From assembly GCA_014729445.1 (NCBI GenBank), contig WJJX01000111.1, positions 1 to 34,589 of the forward strand: a DNA stretch of 34,589 bases, read 5' to 3'. The notes beneath the pieces are model-generated. The model searched no databases, had not been told where the DNA came from, and saw nothing but the letters and a program-made list of their open reading frames with translations. The position numbers were made by a program, and so were the translations under genes. This document shows positions 2,245-18,189 of the stretch, one piece after another; position 1 is the stretch's first letter, and each line of letters begins with the position of its first letter. Source of the DNA: Candidatus Moraniibacteriota bacterium (lineage in GTDB: Bacteria; Patescibacteriota; Minisyncoccia; CAIUEV01; JAHKAQ01).

Positions 2245-4245
<2,001 letters not shown>

Positions 4246-7503: not shown

Positions 7504-8169
7504 ATGCATATATTAATTGTGGAAGACGAAAATAAAATTCTAAATTATTTAAAATCTTCTTTGAAAGCGGAAATGTTTTCTGTTGATTCGACCAATAACG
7601 GGACGGACGGCCTTTTTTTAGCCAGGACTAATCATTATGATTTGATCGTCCTTGATAAAAACCTGCCTAAGATGAGCGGGGATCAGGTTTGCAAAGAGAT
7701 CAGACGGAAGGGCATTAACACCCCGATCATCTTTTTAACCGGCGAGGATACGCTTGAAGATAAACTGACCTCTTTTAATATCGGAGCTGATGACTATTTA
7801 ACCAAACCCTATTCTTTTGATGAGCTTCTGGCCAGAATTAAGGCTTTGTTGAGAAGACCTCGGGGAATTGAAAAAAACAAAATCAAAATCGGCGATCTGT
7901 TGATTGACAGAAATAAGTTCAAGGTAACAAGAAATAACAAGGATCTAAGACTTACCAGAAAAGAGTTCAATTTATTACTGTGTCTGGCCAGCAGCAGGGG
8001 CAATGTTGTAAGTCGGGGTAAAATTTTGGAAACCGTTTGGGACATGCATGCGGATCCTTTTTCCAATACAATTGAATCTCATATTTTAAGTCTTCGAAAA
8101 AAGGTTGACCCCAAGAAAAAACTTATTAAAACAATTCCCGGACGGGGTTATATGATTGAAGCTGCTTAG
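7504..8169 (+). CDS. OmpR/PhoB-family response regulator
   Basis: Receiver domain (ILIVEDE, DLIVLD, IIFLT, GADDYLTKP) plus winged helix (LTRKEFNLL, IKTIPGRGY). Confidence 0.95.
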   Translation: MHILIVEDENKILNYLKSSLKAEMFSVDSTNNGTDGLFLARTNHYDLIVLDKNLPKMSGDQVCKEIRRKGINTPIIFLTGEDTLEDKLTSFNIGADDYLTKPYSFDELLARIKALLRRPRGIEKNKIKIGDLLIDRNKFKVTRNNKDLRLTRKEFNLLLCLASSRGNVVSRGKILETVWDMHADPFSNTIESHILSLRKKVDPKKKLIKTIPGRGYMIEAA

Positions 8170-8498
8170 ATGCCTGCTTGACCGCCAAAAAGAGAATTGA
8201 TCAACATAACTAAAGCAAAAGAACCAATCGCGATTGCGAGGCCGATAATGGCATAATTTAAATGACGCTTAGCCTGCTCCATTTTTTCCTGATTGCCTAT
8301 GGAAACAAGATACATCAGTCCTCCAATTACAAATCCGATAACTCCAATGCCTGCGATTATTAAAAAAATGAATCTTACAACATTCGAAACAACCTCCATA
8401 ATCGAAGGCGCTTCCTCAAAAAGTTCTTGAGCCCAGACGATTTGATAATTCAAGAAAACAAGCCCCCCGCTGACCAAACTAATTTTTAACTTTCTCAT
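8166..8498 (-). CDS. Pilin-like protein (TrbC/VirB2-like)
   Basis: Signal peptide ending VWA, then two hydrophobic helices around GGLMYLVSIGNQEKMEQAKRHLNYAIIGLAI, the pattern of CPR T4SS-type pilins. Confidence 0.8.
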   Translation of the reverse strand: MRKLKISLVSGGLVFLNYQIVWAQELFEEAPSIMEVVSNVVRFIFLIIAGIGVIGFVIGGLMYLVSIGNQEKMEQAKRHLNYAIIGLAIAIGSFALVMLINSLFGGQAGI

Positions 8499-10505: not shown

Positions 10506-11615
10506 TTATTTTTTTATGGGCGATAATAAATAAAGAAAATCGGGTTTTTCTCTGTTGGATTTAATCAAAATTGGAGAACTTGAATCGTTTAAGAGCATCT
10601 TAATCTTGTCTTCTTTAACTGAATTTATACCATCTATTAAGTATCTGTAATTAAAGATAATTTCGACATCTTCTCCTTTGATATTAACCTTTGTCTTTCT
10701 TGATCCTTCGCCCACCTTGCTGCTTTTGGCGCTTGTTGTAAGCTGCTCTTCTTTTTTGGAAAAGTTTAATTTAATGTCACTTGAGTCCTGGCCCGAAAAT
10801 AAAGAAATTAATCTAATCGAATCGATTAATTTATTCTTATCGACTACAACCTCGGTTTTAAATTCCCGGGGAATAATTTGAGTGTAATCCGGATAATTGC
10901 CGTCGATTATTCTTGAAATCAAATAAATGCTTTCGCTTTCAAAAACGATTTGATTGTCTTTAACATAAACATTTAAATCCTCGTCAGTGTCTTTAAAGAT
11001 TTGCATAATCTCAACCGCCGATTGACTTGGAACAATTACCGATTCAATATCTGATTGACTCAACCCGTTGCTTTTAATAATTTTTTCTCCCAGTCTAAAT
11101 CCGTCAGTTGAAACAATTCGAAGGTCTTTTTTATTGTTTTTTAAATAAACACTGGCTAAATCCGGTCTAATATTGGAAATTGCCACCGCAGGGATAACCT
11201 GTTCAATTGCTCGGGTGATTTGATTCGGAGGCAAATTGATTGGATTTTCTTTCTTAAGCTTTGGAATAATTGGAAATTCTTTGGAGCTTATTCCGTTAAT
11301 TGTTGTATTTGTTGATTTGGTGTTAATCTTAATACCATTTTGATTTTTGGTAAGAGTTATTTTTTTATCATTAATACTTTCCACAACGCTGCTTAAAATT
11401 TTTAGCGGTATGGCTACTTCGCCTTCTTTTTCTATGGAAGCGGGAACGGTTAAAACAACTCCCACTTCCAGGTTGGTGGCTTTAATTTTTAACTCCCCTT
11501 TTTTAGCCGTAATCAAAACACTGGCCAGGGCGGGTAAATTGTTATGGCTTTTAGCGATTCTACTTAGTTTGTTTAAAGACTGACCCAGGTAGTTTTTGAA
11601 TAGATTTATTTTCAT
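10506..11615 (-). CDS. dnaN: DNA polymerase III beta clamp
   Basis: ATNLE, EFPIIP, VSTDGFRL, SRIIDGNYPDY, IIFNYRYLID, LLSPI; lies downstream of dnaA. Confidence 0.97.
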   Translation of the reverse strand: MKINLFKNYLGQSLNKLSRIAKSHNNLPALASVLITAKKGELKIKATNLEVGVVLTVPASIEKEGEVAIPLKILSSVVESINDKKITLTKNQNGIKINTKSTNTTINGISSKEFPIIPKLKKENPINLPPNQITRAIEQVIPAVAISNIRPDLASVYLKNNKKDLRIVSTDGFRLGEKIIKSNGLSQSDIESVIVPSQSAVEIMQIFKDTDEDLNVYVKDNQIVFESESIYLISRIIDGNYPDYTQIIPREFKTEVVVDKNKLIDSIRLISLFSGQDSSDIKLNFSKKEEQLTTSAKSSKVGEGSRKTKVNIKGEDVEIIFNYRYLIDGINSVKEDKIKMLLNDSSSPILIKSNREKPDFLYLLSPIKK

Positions 11616-13224: not shown

Positions 13225-13275
13225 AAGATATAGATTTTTTGTCTTTTTGACAACCACTAGTCTCGTTGATAAATT
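13225..13275. promoter_or_regulatory. Overlapping divergent sigma70 promoters (dnaA and the scpA/scpB operon)
   Basis: Plus: TTGACA 13247-13252, 17 nt, TGaTAAATT (-10 at 13270-13275). Minus: TTGTCA 13253-13248, 17 nt, TATCTT 13230-13225. Confidence 0.65.
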
Positions 13276-13315: not shown

Positions 13316-14536
13316 ATGAGTAAAGCTAAAAAAAACAAAAAAATGAAGCCGCCGGCAAATCTTCCGGTAAGTAATGATGTTCCCGATTTTTCAGGCGATA
13401 AGGATGCGGAAGGGGCGCGGAAAGAGAAAAACGAACAGAAGACATTTTCGGCATTTTCGGATATATATTCAAATACCGACTTGAAAGCGGAAAGTAAGCT
13501 TGAAAAAAAGGTTCCGCCGGAAGCGCCGAAGCTGTCGGCACCGTTGAAAGTGGAGGAGATTATTTATGGCAAAAAAGGGGACGAGGAAAAAAGCGAAAAA
13601 AAAGAAAGGGAGAAACAGAGCCGCCAAGAACCGCCGGAAGAAGCGAATCGAAACAATAATATCGAAGCGAACGGGCAGCAATTGGATGAGGCTTTAGAAC
13701 AAGGCACTCCTCGAAAGAAAACGATATCGGATTTTAAGTTAAAAGTTTTATTTGCTGCAATTGTTGTTATTTTTATTTTGCTGATTTTTGGTTACGCTTC
13801 TTTTTTTAGAAAGCAGAACGAAAAGAAGGATTCAGATCAAACCGAAGAATCCTCCTGGGGATTTAGCTTTAAAAATTTCTTAAAGACCGCAGACAAACAA
13901 CCTGTTGACAGGGAAGGAGAGGTGGAAGCCGAAGAGGAAGATGTTTTTGAGGTCGAAGAAGAAGTTGAAAAACCTGTGGAAAACTTTGACCTGGATAATC
14001 AAATTGATCTGGAATTGGATAAAATTGCGCTGGATATAGAAAATCTTAACGATTTAAAACAAGAGCTGTATCAATTTTCCACTTTTAATGTTCGGGAAGG
14101 AGAGGCTGTTCAATTGATAATTCGTTTAAACGGTCAGGATATAGGTTTTAATGAGCTAGTAAGAGGTTTAAACTTGGCGGTTCCGCTTTCCCGTGAAAGT
14201 TATGAAAAATTTGCCCTGGCTTTGACTCGAGAAAACGGTTTTATGAAATTCGGCTTATTGATTCGGACTAATAATACCTTAAATCAAAACAGAGAGTTGT
14301 TTCAAGAATGGGAAAATTATTTAAAGCAGAGTTTCGATGCTTTGTATTTCAATGAGCCCCTTAATGATCCCAATGTCAATGAGGGGGCGGGTTTTCAGGA
14401 TAGTTTGAAATTTGTCAACGGAAGATATATTAATTTAAGCAAAGCAAAGTCCTATTATTTAAACTATAGCTTAAATGGAAGTTTAATTATAATCGGTACC
14501 AGCACTAAGCTGGTAATAGATTTAAACAAATATTGA
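13316..14536 (+). CDS. Hypothetical single-pass membrane protein (X1), paralog of 15284-17167
   Basis: Charged low-complexity N-terminus, TM helix VLFAAIVVIFILLIFGYASFF, acidic linker, C-terminal domain with WEN...RYIN...LNY...IGTS. Its stop overlaps the scpA TTG. Confidence 0.85.
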   Translation: MSKAKKNKKMKPPANLPVSNDVPDFSGDKDAEGARKEKNEQKTFSAFSDIYSNTDLKAESKLEKKVPPEAPKLSAPLKVEEIIYGKKGDEEKSEKKEREKQSRQEPPEEANRNNNIEANGQQLDEALEQGTPRKKTISDFKLKVLFAAIVVIFILLIFGYASFFRKQNEKKDSDQTEESSWGFSFKNFLKTADKQPVDREGEVEAEEEDVFEVEEEVEKPVENFDLDNQIDLELDKIALDIENLNDLKQELYQFSTFNVREGEAVQLIIRLNGQDIGFNELVRGLNLAVPLSRESYEKFALALTRENGFMKFGLLIRTNNTLNQNRELFQEWENYLKQSFDALYFNEPLNDPNVNEGAGFQDSLKFVNGRYINLSKAKSYYLNYSLNGSLIIIGTSTKLVIDLNKY

Positions 14537-15255
14537 AAATGAAAAATCAAAAATATGTGGTTACGGTTGATAATTTTGTGGGGCCGCTGGAGCTTCTTTA
14601 CGATTTGGTTTCCAGGAAGCAATTGGATATTAATCAATTCTCTTTGGCTCAAATAGCAGATGATTATTTAAACGCGTTGAGCCGTTTTGCCCTCGAGGTG
14701 GAGGACGTGGGCGGTTTTTTGGAAATCGCGAGTTCTCTTGTTTTGATTAAATCATTATCCATTTTGCCGGAGCTTGGAGAGGATTTAACCTCTGAGGAGT
14801 ATCAAAAAATGGAGGATTTGGAAAAGAGGCTCAGCCTGTATTCTTTTTTTAAGAAATATTTTCAGAGCATTGAAGAGAGATATCTGAAGTCGGCTTATCT
14901 TTCCAGAGAATGGTTTGAAGCCGAAGATAAAAATTATCAAAAAGAACAGGTTTCGCCTGTGATAGACAAGAAAGAACTTTTAGAAAGCATGCGTTCGTTG
15001 ATTAAAAAAAATACCAATTTGGAGATTTTGAAAAGAGAAGCCATTAATGATAGAATTAAATTGGGTGAAAAGGTCAGATTTTTGAAAGCAAAATTAAAAC
15101 AGAACGGAATAATAAGCTGGCGCAGGGATTTTGCCGGGGAAACAAAGCCTGAAAAGGTTTTGCTTTTTTTAGCTGTTTTGGAGCTTTTGAGAAATTTTGA
15201 AATAGAAGTTTCTCAAAAGGGCTTTTTAACAGAGATTGATTTGACACCGGTCTGA
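14533..15255 (+). CDS. scpA: Segregation and condensation protein A (kleisin)
   Basis: N-terminal NFVGPLELLYDLV...LDINQFSLAQIADDYL, FLEIASSLVLIKS, and C-terminal LFLAVLELL...VSQ motifs. Start is TTG 14533 or ATG 14539. Confidence 0.92.
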   Translation: MKMKNQKYVVTVDNFVGPLELLYDLVSRKQLDINQFSLAQIADDYLNALSRFALEVEDVGGFLEIASSLVLIKSLSILPELGEDLTSEEYQKMEDLEKRLSLYSFFKKYFQSIEERYLKSAYLSREWFEAEDKNYQKEQVSPVIDKKELLESMRSLIKKNTNLEILKREAINDRIKLGEKVRFLKAKLKQNGIISWRRDFAGETKPEKVLLFLAVLELLRNFEIEVSQKGFLTEIDLTPV

Positions 15256-15283
15256 TTTTTAAAATTAATTAGCAACCGATAAA

Positions 15284-17167
15284 ATGATTCAAGAAGGCAT
15301 AAGAGATCCAACCAAAATAGAGATTGAGCTGATTGCTTTAAACAAGCTTGCAGATTATGCCGCCGGCAAGAGTCAGAGTGCGGTTGAGGCTTTTATTGTC
15401 GATGTTAACAGTGATAATTTTGAACAAATCGGGGAATCGTCGGATTTAAATATGAGCGGTGTTTTTTCCAAAATCAAAGAGTCAATAACCGGAGAAGATC
15501 CCGGGTCCGCTGATGGACTGGTTAGGGCGAAAGAGGATTTAGCCTTTGAGGATCAGAATAAAAAGGGATTTTTAGGACGCATGCTTCAAAAGGTTGGATT
15601 GGGCGATCAGGGCGCCCAGTCAGAAGAGGCCATGGATTCCTCGGTTACTCAAATTAAGCCTTCCAAGGATGCACTTAAAGGGGATTTTGCTTCCGCGAAT
15701 CAGGCTCAACAAGTTCCGCCCGGGGTTCAGCCACAAAGTCTGGGAATGCAACAAATTCAACCGCCGGCGCAGCCTCTTGGTCAGCCCCAAAACGGGTCAA
15801 AAATTACTCAAAGGCCGACGCCGGGAGTTCAAAAAATTCCGGTAACCGATTCAACGCCCGCGGCTCCGCCTTCTTTTTCCTCCAAGCCTCCGGCCGGTTT
15901 TTCTCCACAGGCCGGGATGAAAACTTCTCCTGCTCCGGCGCCTTCAGCTCCCTCGCCTCCCTCGCCTTCAGCCGCCCAGCCTCAAGCCCAGCCGAAATTA
16001 AGACCGTTAAAGCCCGATGTTTCGAAATCGACTCTGCCCCAACCCGAAAAAACGGCTCCTTCTGTTACACCGCCTCAATCGCAAAATAAAACCATAATAA
16101 AGCCTTATGTCCCCAAGCCACAGCCAAGCCCGGATAAAGCTTCGACAAGCTCTTTTGGAACTACCCAAGCCCAAGAAAAGAAAAAATCCGGGGGTGGTTT
16201 AATAGATGCCATGGTTGTGGTGGGTCGAACTTTGAGATTTCATTTAAAGACAATTTTTATCCTGATTGTAATGGCGGGAATTGTGGTCGCTTTTTTTGCC
16301 TTGCCAAAATTGACGAATCAACCTAAAAAATCTTCGGTTGATATTGTGGTTGAATATTCGAATCTGGTTTTTAAAAGAGTCAAAAATTCCTTTGCCGCTT
16401 TATTTAAACCGGGTGTTCAAACGAATCCGACGGATTTTGAACTCAGCGCTTTGTTGGTTGAAAACAAGGATCATATTGACTTGGGATCGATGAGTCTTGG
16501 CAGCGCTCTAGAACGAGCTTTGGATAAAGATCAAATCGCTCAGATCAGCGTTTCGCGCAATCAATTGGGGGCCGGGGCGATGGGCGGGGCTTTTGATCGA
16601 GCCTGGTTGGAAATAAAAGGAGAGGAAACACCGCTTAAGCCCAGTTATGTTTATCAGTTCGCGGATGAATATCGATATGATTTTGAGCAAAAGAGAATTT
16701 ATTTTTTGAAAATAACCGATTCAGAAGGGCGAAAAATTCCCTTTTCGGATTTTGTTTCGGGAATGAGAATGGATCAGATGCCGGCTTTTAAAAAAGATGT
16801 GCGCGATTATCATTTAATGATTTTTATAGAAGACAAGGGAGAGGCCTTAAACTCAAAGGATTATATTAGATTGGGCCTGGTCTTGCTTTTTGATCCCAAA
16901 AATCAGCCGTCTATGGCGCAGCTTAAAGATTGGGAAAATAAAATGATCGGACACTTGCTTAATTTTTATACTTCTAAAAATACTGAATTAATCGATCCTC
17001 AAAAGCAATTTGCCACAAGCTCCATCAGCTCTAACCGAAGATATTTGAATTTTACCGAGGATCATTCGTTGTCTCTTGATTATGGTCTGACTCAGGATGG
17101 AATGTTTATTGTGACAAGTAGAAATTTTGGAGAGATCCTGATGACCATATTGATTCAAAATAATTAG
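15284..17167 (+). CDS. Hypothetical membrane protein (X2) with Pro/Gln/Ser-rich linker, paralog of 13316-14536
   Basis: 627 aa; long P/Q/S-rich region, TM helix TIFILIVMAGIVVAFFAL, C-terminal domain with WEN...RYLN...LDY...IVTS. Confidence 0.85.
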   Translation: MIQEGIRDPTKIEIELIALNKLADYAAGKSQSAVEAFIVDVNSDNFEQIGESSDLNMSGVFSKIKESITGEDPGSADGLVRAKEDLAFEDQNKKGFLGRMLQKVGLGDQGAQSEEAMDSSVTQIKPSKDALKGDFASANQAQQVPPGVQPQSLGMQQIQPPAQPLGQPQNGSKITQRPTPGVQKIPVTDSTPAAPPSFSSKPPAGFSPQAGMKTSPAPAPSAPSPPSPSAAQPQAQPKLRPLKPDVSKSTLPQPEKTAPSVTPPQSQNKTIIKPYVPKPQPSPDKASTSSFGTTQAQEKKKSGGGLIDAMVVVGRTLRFHLKTIFILIVMAGIVVAFFALPKLTNQPKKSSVDIVVEYSNLVFKRVKNSFAALFKPGVQTNPTDFELSALLVENKDHIDLGSMSLGSALERALDKDQIAQISVSRNQLGAGAMGGAFDRAWLEIKGEETPLKPSYVYQFADEYRYDFEQKRIYFLKITDSEGRKIPFSDFVSGMRMDQMPAFKKDVRDYHLMIFIEDKGEALNSKDYIRLGLVLLFDPKNQPSMAQLKDWENKMIGHLLNFYTSKNTELIDPQKQFATSSISSNRRYLNFTEDHSLSLDYGLTQDGMFIVTSRNFGEILMTILIQNN

Positions 17168-17214
17168 GTTTGATATAAACGAAACTTAGTTGGATTTAAT
17201 TATAAACAGCAAAA

Positions 17215-17763
17215 ATGGTTTCTTTAGACAGAGAAAAAGAATTGTTTTGCGCGATAGTCTCGGTTTTGTTTGTTCTGGACGAACCGGTTGAGGCAGAACG
17301 CCTGGGCCGGGTTTTGAATGAAGAACCCAAAAAAATTACGAGAGCGATTAAATTTTATGCCGATTCGCTTGAAGCTGTTGGATTGGCGATCATTAAAGCC
17401 GGAAAAAAATTTCAATTGGCAGCCGATAAAAAAAACTTTAAATATTTAGAGCGGCTTTTTGATGGCGGAAAAAAGTTTAAACCCGGCAAGGCCAGTTTGG
17501 AAATCCTTGCGATTGTGGCCTATAAGCCGGGGATAACCAGAGAACAGATTGATTTAATTAGGGGGGTTAATTCTTATTATACTATCAGGGATTTGATGGT
17601 GAAAGGCTTGATTGAATATTCCAAAGGTGATAAAAAAAAACTAAGGGGAATTTATCCCTCTTTGAAGTTATTACAGACATTGGGAGTTAGGCGGCTTTCG
17701 GAATTGGACGATTTTCAAAAAATCAATCAGAATAAGTTAATTGATGATTTAATTGGTGAATGA
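17215..17763 (+). CDS. scpB: Segregation and condensation protein B
   Basis: VLFVLDEPV, ASLEILAIVAYKPGITREQIDLIRGVNS, LMVKGLI, LLQTLGVRRLSEL. Confidence 0.92.
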   Translation: MVSLDREKELFCAIVSVLFVLDEPVEAERLGRVLNEEPKKITRAIKFYADSLEAVGLAIIKAGKKFQLAADKKNFKYLERLFDGGKKFKPGKASLEILAIVAYKPGITREQIDLIRGVNSYYTIRDLMVKGLIEYSKGDKKKLRGIYPSLKLLQTLGVRRLSELDDFQKINQNKLIDDLIGE

Positions 17764-17805
17764 GACGGATTTTTTAAAATGATTTTATAATTTTAATAAA
17801 ACAAA

Positions 17806-18189
17806 ATGCAGGATGATGGGAATAATAAAGGTTCGTTTTCCGACCAAGAACCTATGGGAATTGAGCTTGTAACAATCAAAAAAAATTATCTGGATGAGAT
17901 GGAATCGCTTCGAAGAGAAGAGCAGGAATTGGTTAAAAAATTTAATATTGAGCTTGCTCAGACCATTTTTAATCTTGATTGGGAAGGAGATTTTGATTAT
18001 GAGGCCAATTTAAATTTATTTTTGAACGAATTGGCTCAGGTAGAGGAGTTTGTTTACAAATCCTCTGAAAATTTTTCGCAGAATGACATAAATATTTGTT
18101 TGTCTCAATTGAGGATCTTAAGAGAGAAGGCAAAAACGGCTATGGCAAAAGCCAAAGAAAAAGAGAAAGAACTGTTAAGCCGGGATTAA
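17806..18189 (+). CDS. Hypothetical acidic helical protein
   Basis: 127-aa ORF with the A-rich pre-ATG context seen at other genes; 42 nt after scpB on the same strand. Confidence 0.65.
   Translation: MQDDGNNKGSFSDQEPMGIELVTIKKNYLDEMESLRREEQELVKKFNIELAQTIFNLDWEGDFDYEANLNLFLNELAQVEEFVYKSSENFSQNDINICLSQLRILREKAKTAMAKAKEKEKELLSRD

Follow-up and report, generated by a model that had tools for sequence, protein, structure and literature searches.

A membrane protein gene lodged between scpA and scpB in a family of Patescibacteria probably encodes a cell-envelope protein, not a condensin-dependent chromosome anchor

A stretch of 34,589 nt from a Candidatus Moraniibacteriota bacterium (assembly GCA_014729445.1, contig WJJX01000111.1; the whole stretch is called the window below) carries, beside dnaA, the genes of the condensin subunits ScpA and ScpB interleaved with those of two predicted membrane proteins, here named X1 and X2. 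The first-pass annotation of this DNA took the arrangement for a condensin-linked tether between chromosome and envelope. The gene order that it described is confirmed; the tether interpretation is possible but disfavored, and quite improbable. X2 probably acts in the cell envelope rather than as an anchor of the chromosome that depends on condensin, because relatives without condensin keep its gene, which is lodged between scpA and scpB in six of the eight genomes of the family and on one metagenome contig (L089), though not in the two condensin-less genomes, G001 and G002. G000 denotes here the genome under study and G001 to G007 the other genomes of the same Moranbacterales-type family. In the reading that we favor, at a probability of about 0.6, X2 is a bitopic protein of the envelope, specific to this lineage; its gene came into the scpA-scpB operon a single time and is probably co-expressed with it, and the protein functions without condensin.

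X2 in genomes with and without condensin

X2 is made of a folded N-terminal domain, a disordered linker rich in proline, glutamine, and serine, one transmembrane helix, and an ectodomain of ∼280 residues. Orthologues are found in all eight genomes of the family, the seven others scoring E = 1e-22 to 1e-48 against the single protein and 1e-81 to 1e-106 against a profile, and none with a comparable score is found in six genomes of the sister family. They form a clade with full support (100 in the Shimodaira-Hasegawa-like approximate likelihood-ratio test, SH-aLRT), within which identity falls to 25%–32%. The N-terminal domain, with the consensus KIEIELIxxxxLxxxxKGKxxxxVENFxVD, is common to all orthologues and occurs exactly once in each of the eight genomes and in none of the six of the sister family. 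The X2 of the window has the three features of the orthogroup, i.e., this domain (profile E = 2e-26), a single transmembrane helix, and a full-length ectodomain, whereas X1 lacks the N-terminal domain, both in alignments and with the domain profile. AlphaFold2 models the first 60 residues of X2 as strand-helix-strand-strand, with a predicted local distance difference test score (pLDDT) of 81–89 over residues 11–50. Hence, the low complexity ascribed earlier to the whole N-terminus of X2 applies to the linker but not to the first ∼50 residues, which are conserved and confidently folded. Searches with this fold matched no known one (best Z 2.8; Foldseek E ≥ 2.8), and a query of the ESM Atlas with residues 1–60 returned only unrelated structures, with no usable feature match.

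The order scpA-X2-scpB is found in G000, G003, G004, G005, G006, and G007, where it is split over two contigs, as well as on L089, which is 1.9 kb long; the junctions in the relatives are short gaps or overlaps. A profile search with a smaller alignment (A4) returned two already known loci of metagenome-assembled genomes (MAGs) among genome contigs and one 1.9-kb metagenome contig. In G003 to G006, scpB is followed by a gene of ∼320 codons, identified by Pfam as Peptidase_S11 in G003 and G005, and scpA is preceded by a response-regulator gene, an identification checked with Pfam in G005 only. Among genomes of other families of the class, ScpB was detected in 54 of 81, and among the 30 best ScpB loci of these families scpA is directly followed by scpB in 25 (gaps of at most ∼170 nt), with Peptidase_S11 next after scpB in 24 of these 25. 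The remaining five comprise L075, which is probably scpA-scpB too, one locus with MazG in place of scpA, and three that are unresolved or at a contig edge. Because scpA and scpB abut elsewhere, X2 is an insertion, specific to this family, in an old operon of scpA, scpB, and a carboxypeptidase gene. The origin linkage suggested by the window is much less regular, as X2 lies within 0.1–3 kb of dnaA in three of the eight genomes (G000, G001, and G002), and no dnaA occurs in the 10–14 kb examined around the unit in G003 to G006.

The decisive genomes are G001 and G002, whose X2 proteins are the most similar to that of the window. Both are draft MAGs, 94% and 93% complete, respectively. Neither yields ScpB, nor ScpA even at E ≤ 0.1, and for Smc there are only weak coiled-coil matches (E ∼1e-7), when G003 and G005 score 1e-88 or better. 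Their contiguous X2 loci (L013 and L014) have both flanking Scp slots empty. In G001, a gene for a disordered transmembrane protein of 249 residues lies upstream; downstream come an amidase gene and then Peptidase_S11. X2 itself is intact in both, including its N-terminal domain (E ∼1e-26). In G000, smc is absent from the window, as had been noted, and lies on contig C79, apart from scpAB; that all three genes should by chance have fallen into gaps of both MAGs is therefore unlikely. The co-occurrence of X2 with Smc-ScpAB that condensin dependence would entail thus fails in these two genomes, and since X2 is kept after the whole system has gone, it is not an obligate condensin partner.

The distribution of Smc-ScpAB in the class is patchy. 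No ScpB turned up in 27 of the 81 genomes and no Smc in 20 of 61, a good number of these genomes being 98%–100% complete. Condensin has apparently been lost several times. The Smc proteins themselves are short. That of G000 has 723 residues (C79:6192-8351; locus L023:319-2490, minus strand), with Pfam SMC_N spanning both halves of the head and no hinge domain at E ≤ 0.1. The Smc frames listed for the 41 of 61 genomes with a match range from 674 to 796 residues, barring those cut at contig edges and otherwise fragmentary ones (G017 and G054), i.e., ∼60% of the usual ∼1180 residues. This is possibly a natural "mini-Smc" with short arms, perhaps missing the canonical hinge, of which the literature, as far as full-text searches gave access to it, contains no description.

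The window and its genes

The coordinates bear out the order X1-scpA-X2-scpB-small open reading frame (ORF), the divergent dnaA, and the four junctions reported at first pass. The features are the following, in window positions.

10506-11615: dnaN, next after dnaA
11815..13257, minus strand: dnaA (Pfam Bac_DnaA 4.5e-68, plus Bac_DnaA_C and DnaA_N), divergent neighbor of X1
13247..13275, plus strand: promoter-like site 5′ of X1, TTGACA-17-TAAATT with TG, 10/12 matches in a consensus scan
13316-14536, plus strand: X1, 406 residues, predicted bitopic membrane protein; K/E-rich N-terminal region of ∼140 residues, transmembrane helix at ∼residues 144–162 (nt 13745-13801), ectodomain at ∼168–398
14533-15255, plus strand: scpA (kleisin), PF02616 58.3 bits (cut-off 24.6), model positions 1–228 of 232
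15284-17167, plus strand: X2, 627 residues, predicted bitopic membrane protein
15314..15430, plus strand: cytoplasmic N-terminal mini-domain of X2 (predicted), residues 11–49, from alignments and the AlphaFold2 model
16250..16306, plus strand: transmembrane helix of X2 (predicted), residues 323–341, Kyte-Doolittle 19-residue window with mean 2.69
16322..17164, plus strand: ectodomain of X2 (predicted), ∼280 residues, the C-terminal ∼150 being the module common to X1 and a wider family
17215-17763, plus strand: scpB (kite subunit), PF04079 93.4 bits (cut-off 27.4)
17806-18189, plus strand: small acidic ORF, 127 residues

X1 and dnaA are separated by 58 nt. X1 and scpA overlap by 4 nt if scpA starts at TTG, and an alternative ATG two codons on would leave a small gap instead; the other junctions are of 28 nt (scpA-X2), 47 nt (X2-scpB), and 42 nt (scpB-small ORF). 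ScpA also matches the NCBIfam segregation/condensation protein A model at 1.9e-28, under its equivalog cut-off. Pfam and NCBIfam give nothing over any cut-off for X1, X2, or the small ORF, and for X2 nothing at E ≤ 1. The single transmembrane helix proposed for each membrane protein holds, as there is one strongly hydrophobic 19-residue window in X1 (144–162) and one in X2 (323–341). Neither has a signal peptide, so that for both a cytoplasmic N-terminus and an external C-terminal domain are predicted. The promoter scan of the region returned nine sites for a shuffle mean of 10.7, i.e., no excess, which makes the site upstream of X1 a weak one, and the terminator scan around the locus did no better than shuffles. 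The cumulative GC skew has its minimum near 10–11 kb of the window, which fits an origin close to dnaN and dnaA; DnaA boxes are enriched (16 matches for 7.9 expected) but form no intergenic cluster.

The small ORF had been counted as part of the unit. Homologues exist in six of the seven other genomes of the family, each on a contig other than that of X2, and G000 has a second copy (C39:2327-2683, 63% identity). By these comparisons it is a real gene family, not a conserved member of the scpA-X2-scpB unit. Elsewhere in the window, gyrB (2245-4242, plus strand) contains a single in-frame TGA at 2839-2841, past which the reading frame is unchanged; Pfam matches the ATPase part on its 5′ side and DNA_gyraseB, Toprim, and the C-terminal part on its 3′ side. 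TGA is an ordinary stop elsewhere, for example at the end of X1, and this one may reflect a sequencing error, a pseudogene, read-through, or recoding.

X1, X2, and an unnamed ectodomain family

The shared C-terminal pattern of X1 and X2 had been noticed as a domain of no named family, and all the motifs quoted for it are present in the translations. Its reality is supported by two comparisons. BLASTP aligns the last ∼135 residues of the two proteins (E = 7e-5, 23% identity across 135 residues). An independent profile of six X2 orthologues, all from other genomes and neither window protein among them, retrieves from the 1657 ORFs of at least 80 residues of G000 three proteins, namely X2 (6e-60), a paralogue of 346 residues on contig C82 (4e-10), and X1 (2.1e-5, over positions 43–265 of 281), and no fourth match at E ≤ 10. 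Hence, the genome holds three members of one ectodomain family, and X1 and X2 are paralogous, on a similarity weak but beyond chance, through a C-terminal domain that matches no Pfam or NCBIfam family.

The place of X1 beside scpA is not conserved. A word-index search of 5.8 billion clusters found a single homologue of X1 (P0002, 42% identity), and in none of the relatives examined does an X1-type ectodomain gene lie beside scpA. Phylogenetic analysis was made on 56 rows: the two window proteins, P0002, 12 X2-type representatives (P0003, P0005–P0010, and P0012–P0016), 20 paralogues of the order, and 21 representatives longer than 250 residues from P0017–P0042. It omitted the fragment P0011, P0044 (identical to the FecR-class paralogue of G001), representatives of 250 residues or fewer, and everything past P0044. 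The maximum-likelihood tree places X1 and P0002 beside a class of paralogues located between rpoC and pnp, with an SH-aLRT of 85, below the star threshold, and a tree uniting them with the X2 clade is not rejected (log-likelihood difference 3.95; approximately unbiased test, p-AU 0.36), this group having been named after the tree was seen. The rpoC-pnp class is missing from its usual position in G000. X1 thus looks like a divergent paralogue confined, as far as seen, to the lineage of G000, and its link to scpA likewise. The alternation of membrane protein and Scp genes is then an accident of G000 and not a design, and the idea that each Scp gene has a membrane partner of its own is not supported by the comparison: conserved co-location with condensin genes is found for X2 and not for X1. 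The slot of X1 is occupied by genes of 249 codons in G001, that of the disordered protein mentioned above, and of 355 codons in G002, which have no significant similarity with X1, ScpA, or X2 (best E 0.03). By eye, a short N-terminal motif recurs in X1 (KPPANLP, window 13316-13380), P0002 (KPPSNLP), and the 355-codon gene of G002 (APPNLP, L013:5584-6651); the BLASTP alignment is not significant, and the resemblance may be chance in low-complexity sequence.

Beyond the family, the ectodomain profile matches 690 cluster representatives at E ≤ 1e-3 among 1.84 billion, 82 of them at ≤1e-10 and 15 at ≤1e-30. This is a large, Patescibacteria-wide, unnamed family that no database describes, and both X1 and X2 carry its C-terminal domain of ∼150 residues (W-E ... 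F..S ... RY.N ... Y ... TS). Pfam finds nothing at E ≤ 0.01 in 64 of 65 members, the other (P0061) having a sub-threshold DUF3352 match (E = 1.6e-4); the DUF3352 model in turn finds nothing at E ≤ 1 in the 14 genomes of the order, X1 and X2 included. Each of these 14 genomes has two to four members. In a sample of the phylum, at least 19 of the 150 genomes listed besides G000 match the C-terminal domain (five of the same class and 14 of other classes). A tally of 107 of 151 obtained with a full-length alignment (A8) was discarded, being inflated by the low-complexity and transmembrane parts of the model.

The neighbors of family members are varied: a penicillin-binding protein (PBP) transpeptidase gene (with a T4SS-pilin-like gene and pth), a Mur ligase gene, MurJ, FecR-domain genes, or the rpoC/pnp gap. 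FecR-domain genes adjoin the C82 paralogue and its counterparts in G001 and G002. Scattering of homologues away from scpAB is therefore true of the domain family overall but not of the X2 subgroup, linked in six of eight genomes and on L089. In G003 to G006 (L042, L043, L045, and L047), the rpoC-pnp class faces the end of rpoC in convergent orientation and directly precedes pnp. Paralogues of the sister family, too, are neighbors of pnp (L048, L052, and L054, the latter with rpsO between), in a separate well-supported clade and with no rpoC adjoining. In four other loci of the sister family (L035, L036, L037, and L039), a paralogue of ∼310 residues stands between a PBP transpeptidase and a T4SS_pilin-domain protein of ∼350 residues, followed by pth, with the exception of L039, which is without the PBP and pth neighbors and has a glycosyltransferase fragment upstream. 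The window has at 8169-8498 (minus strand) a T4SS_pilin-domain ORF of 110 residues, adjoining a Lamin-tail-domain protein and near pilM. Among the representatives of at least 250 residues drawn from P0017–P0150, 91 of 132 have within their first 150 residues a motif of the type I-R/H-T-M-x-x-D-L (IRTMQDDL, IHTMKDDL, VRTMQSDL), which looks like a short docking peptide for a cytoplasmic partner; X1, P0002, and each of the 14 X2-type sequences checked lack it.

AlphaFold2 models the X2 ectodomain with a pLDDT of 76.9 and a predicted template-modeling score (pTM) of 0.76; pLDDT exceeds 85 over most of model residues 110–283 and is low in the first 52. Foldseek finds nothing in the PDB at E ≤ 1e-3, and a profile search of PDB sequences with the ectodomain alignment gives nothing below E 1 and one meaningless match at E = 1. 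The top rows of VIA-align are TM1622 (Z 5.6), the PknH ectodomain (5.5), and DcrB (5.2), then TP0453, TiME, Mog1, Apa, LpqN, and PsbP, all weak (108–133 residues aligned, root-mean-square deviation 3.5–4.7 Å), in the Z range that the tool calls "common arrangement." Structural neighbors in the ESM Atlas are hypothetical proteins of Minisyncoccota and then DUF4836 (PF16120), DUF3352 (PF11832), a FecR/zf-HC2 cluster, and PknH_C; none reaches the tool's bar, and the two DUFs have TM-scores of 0.35–0.42. The model thus weakly suggests a fold like that of Mog1, PsbP, and the PknH sensor, as a lead and not as membership. As the model suggests for X2, the Mog1/PsbP-like domains (PknH 4esq, DcrB 6e8a, LpqN 6e5d, TiME 7cu8, and PsbP; Z 4.0–5.6) are membrane-tethered alpha/beta sandwich ectodomains, but there is no sequence similarity by Pfam or PDB profile and the X2 ectodomain has an extra N-terminal subdomain.

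Possible roles of X2 and comparison with known systems

If X2 is an envelope protein, its gene would have entered the ancestral operon of scpA, scpB, and a D-Ala-D-Ala carboxypeptidase in the ancestor of the family and remained there. Its ectodomain may bind an envelope component, as the PknH sensor, LpqN, and DcrB do, and its N-terminal domain might hold a putative cytoplasmic partner. If X2 is transcribed together with scpAB (in relatives also with the carboxypeptidase gene), its expression would be tied to a programme of segregation and wall growth. Several points weigh on the other side. The scpA-X2-scpB linkage, having survived divergence to 25%–32% identity, has outlasted most neutral ones and may point to a genuine functional connection with condensin; the vicinity of dnaA in G000, G001, and G002 leaves room, as gene order goes, for an origin-related role. 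The absence of Smc-ScpAB from G001 and G002 is deduced from draft MAGs. Both the partner and the co-transcription are things that we infer; for co-transcription, promoter and terminator scans were no better than shuffles. Since the structural matches are so weak (Z ≤ 5.6, no Foldseek match, Atlas neighbors under the bar), the ligand-binding analogy rests on little.

Were X1 and X2 condensin-linked tethers, their N-termini would bind ScpA, ScpB, Smc, or origin-proximal proteins and so couple the origin to the envelope. The long-kept position of X2, its conserved folded mini-domain, well suited to protein binding, and its closeness to dnaA in three genomes are what one would expect from such a protein. 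Yet X2 and its N-terminal domain persist in two genomes without Smc, ScpA, and ScpB, X1 has no such domain and no conserved link to scpA, dnaA is missing from the surroundings of the unit in G003 to G006, and the ectodomain family at large is scattered among unrelated contexts, so we regard this as very unlikely. A complex prediction with ScpA, two copies of ScpB, and residues 1–70 of X2 scored 0.00 ("no answer") and was counted neither for nor against. A broader version, to which we give as little credit, makes X2 a Patescibacteria-specific coupler of chromosome and envelope, its ectodomain fixed in the wall and its N-terminal domain docking on Smc-ScpAB or, after the loss of condensin, on another partner, for example DNA bound by DnaA or ParB; if true, it would explain both the long-lived position in scpAB and the adjacency to dnaA in three genomes.

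The position might instead say nothing of function, if the scpA/scpB junction merely tolerates insertions and X2, having landed there once as a neutral hitch-hiker, was hard to remove. That X2 is an insertion, as is indicated by the 25 of 30 loci from other families of the class in which scpA and scpB abut, and that it outlasts the loss of both flanking genes fit this explanation, as would the membrane gene cpCone-1, which according to a preprint may be inserted between scpA and scpB too (10.1101/2025.01.14.632903). The single place kept across genera despite ∼25% identity, with overlapping or short junctions, suggests on the contrary selection for co-expression. We hold neutrality to be unlikely, though less so than a tether; it largely overlaps with the envelope-protein reading, the sole difference being whether co-expression matters. 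The architecture, a short folded N-terminal domain, a linker, a transmembrane helix, and a sensor-like ectodomain, would also suit transmembrane signaling of the anti-sigma type, in which the ectodomain senses the state of the envelope and the N-terminal domain sequesters a cytoplasmic regulator until it is released. Consistent with this are the under-bar Atlas cluster that combines zf-HC2 (anti-sigma), FecR, and DUF3352, the FecR-domain genes next to the paralogue on C82 and to the corresponding genes of G001 and G002, and the response-regulator gene before scpA in G005. But no sigma factor gene is adjacent, and the N-terminal domain shows no detectable similarity to anti-sigma domains (nothing from Pfam at E ≤ 1; folds Z ≤ 2.8), which makes such signaling a long shot.

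For chromosome organization and segregation in the ultra-small, uncultivated Patescibacteria, a membrane protein that a whole family encodes amid its condensin accessory genes is a tangible candidate as a link from envelope to chromosome, but the evidence points the other way. That X2 outlives condensin redirects attention to the 690-cluster ectodomain family and to the repeated loss of Smc-ScpAB, and cautions against reading function from the gene order of a single genome.

With respect to the canonical scpA-scpB operon, ScpA and ScpB of G000 are ordinary family members, and the class-wide order, scpA-scpB-Peptidase_S11 in 24 of 30 loci, matches the layout in B. subtilis, ypuG-ypuH and then dacB. 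G000 and five relatives differ in having a gene for a membrane protein of 400–630 residues between the two, and G000 also in having a second paralogue before scpA. A parallel is cpCone-1 of the Lipocone superfamily, whose gene is reported to lie at times in the same place; the authors of that report also speculate on a coupling of membrane processes to chromosome segregation (10.1101/2025.01.14.632903). It is of a different superfamily, described there as lipid head-group enzymes, whereas X2 has one transmembrane helix and a large ectodomain. In the literature that full-text searches opened to us, no Patescibacteria membrane protein is described between scpA and scpB. Known chromosome-to-envelope tethers include RacA-DivIVA, PopZ-ParB, and HubP-ParA, and MapZ is a bitopic marker of the division site. 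The tethers act via ParB, ParA, or RacA on DNA, not via ScpAB, and we know of none encoded inside scpAB. No homology of X1 or X2 to proteins of the RacA, PopZ, HubP, or MapZ type was detected, no search having been aimed at them. The topology of HubP, with a periplasmic N-terminal LysM, is opposite to that predicted for X2. The likeness to tethers is in the concept, a protein anchored at the membrane or pole with a cytoplasmic protein-binding module, and it extends with MapZ to the order of the parts, a cytoplasmic N-terminal domain, a transmembrane helix, and an extracellular C-terminal domain.

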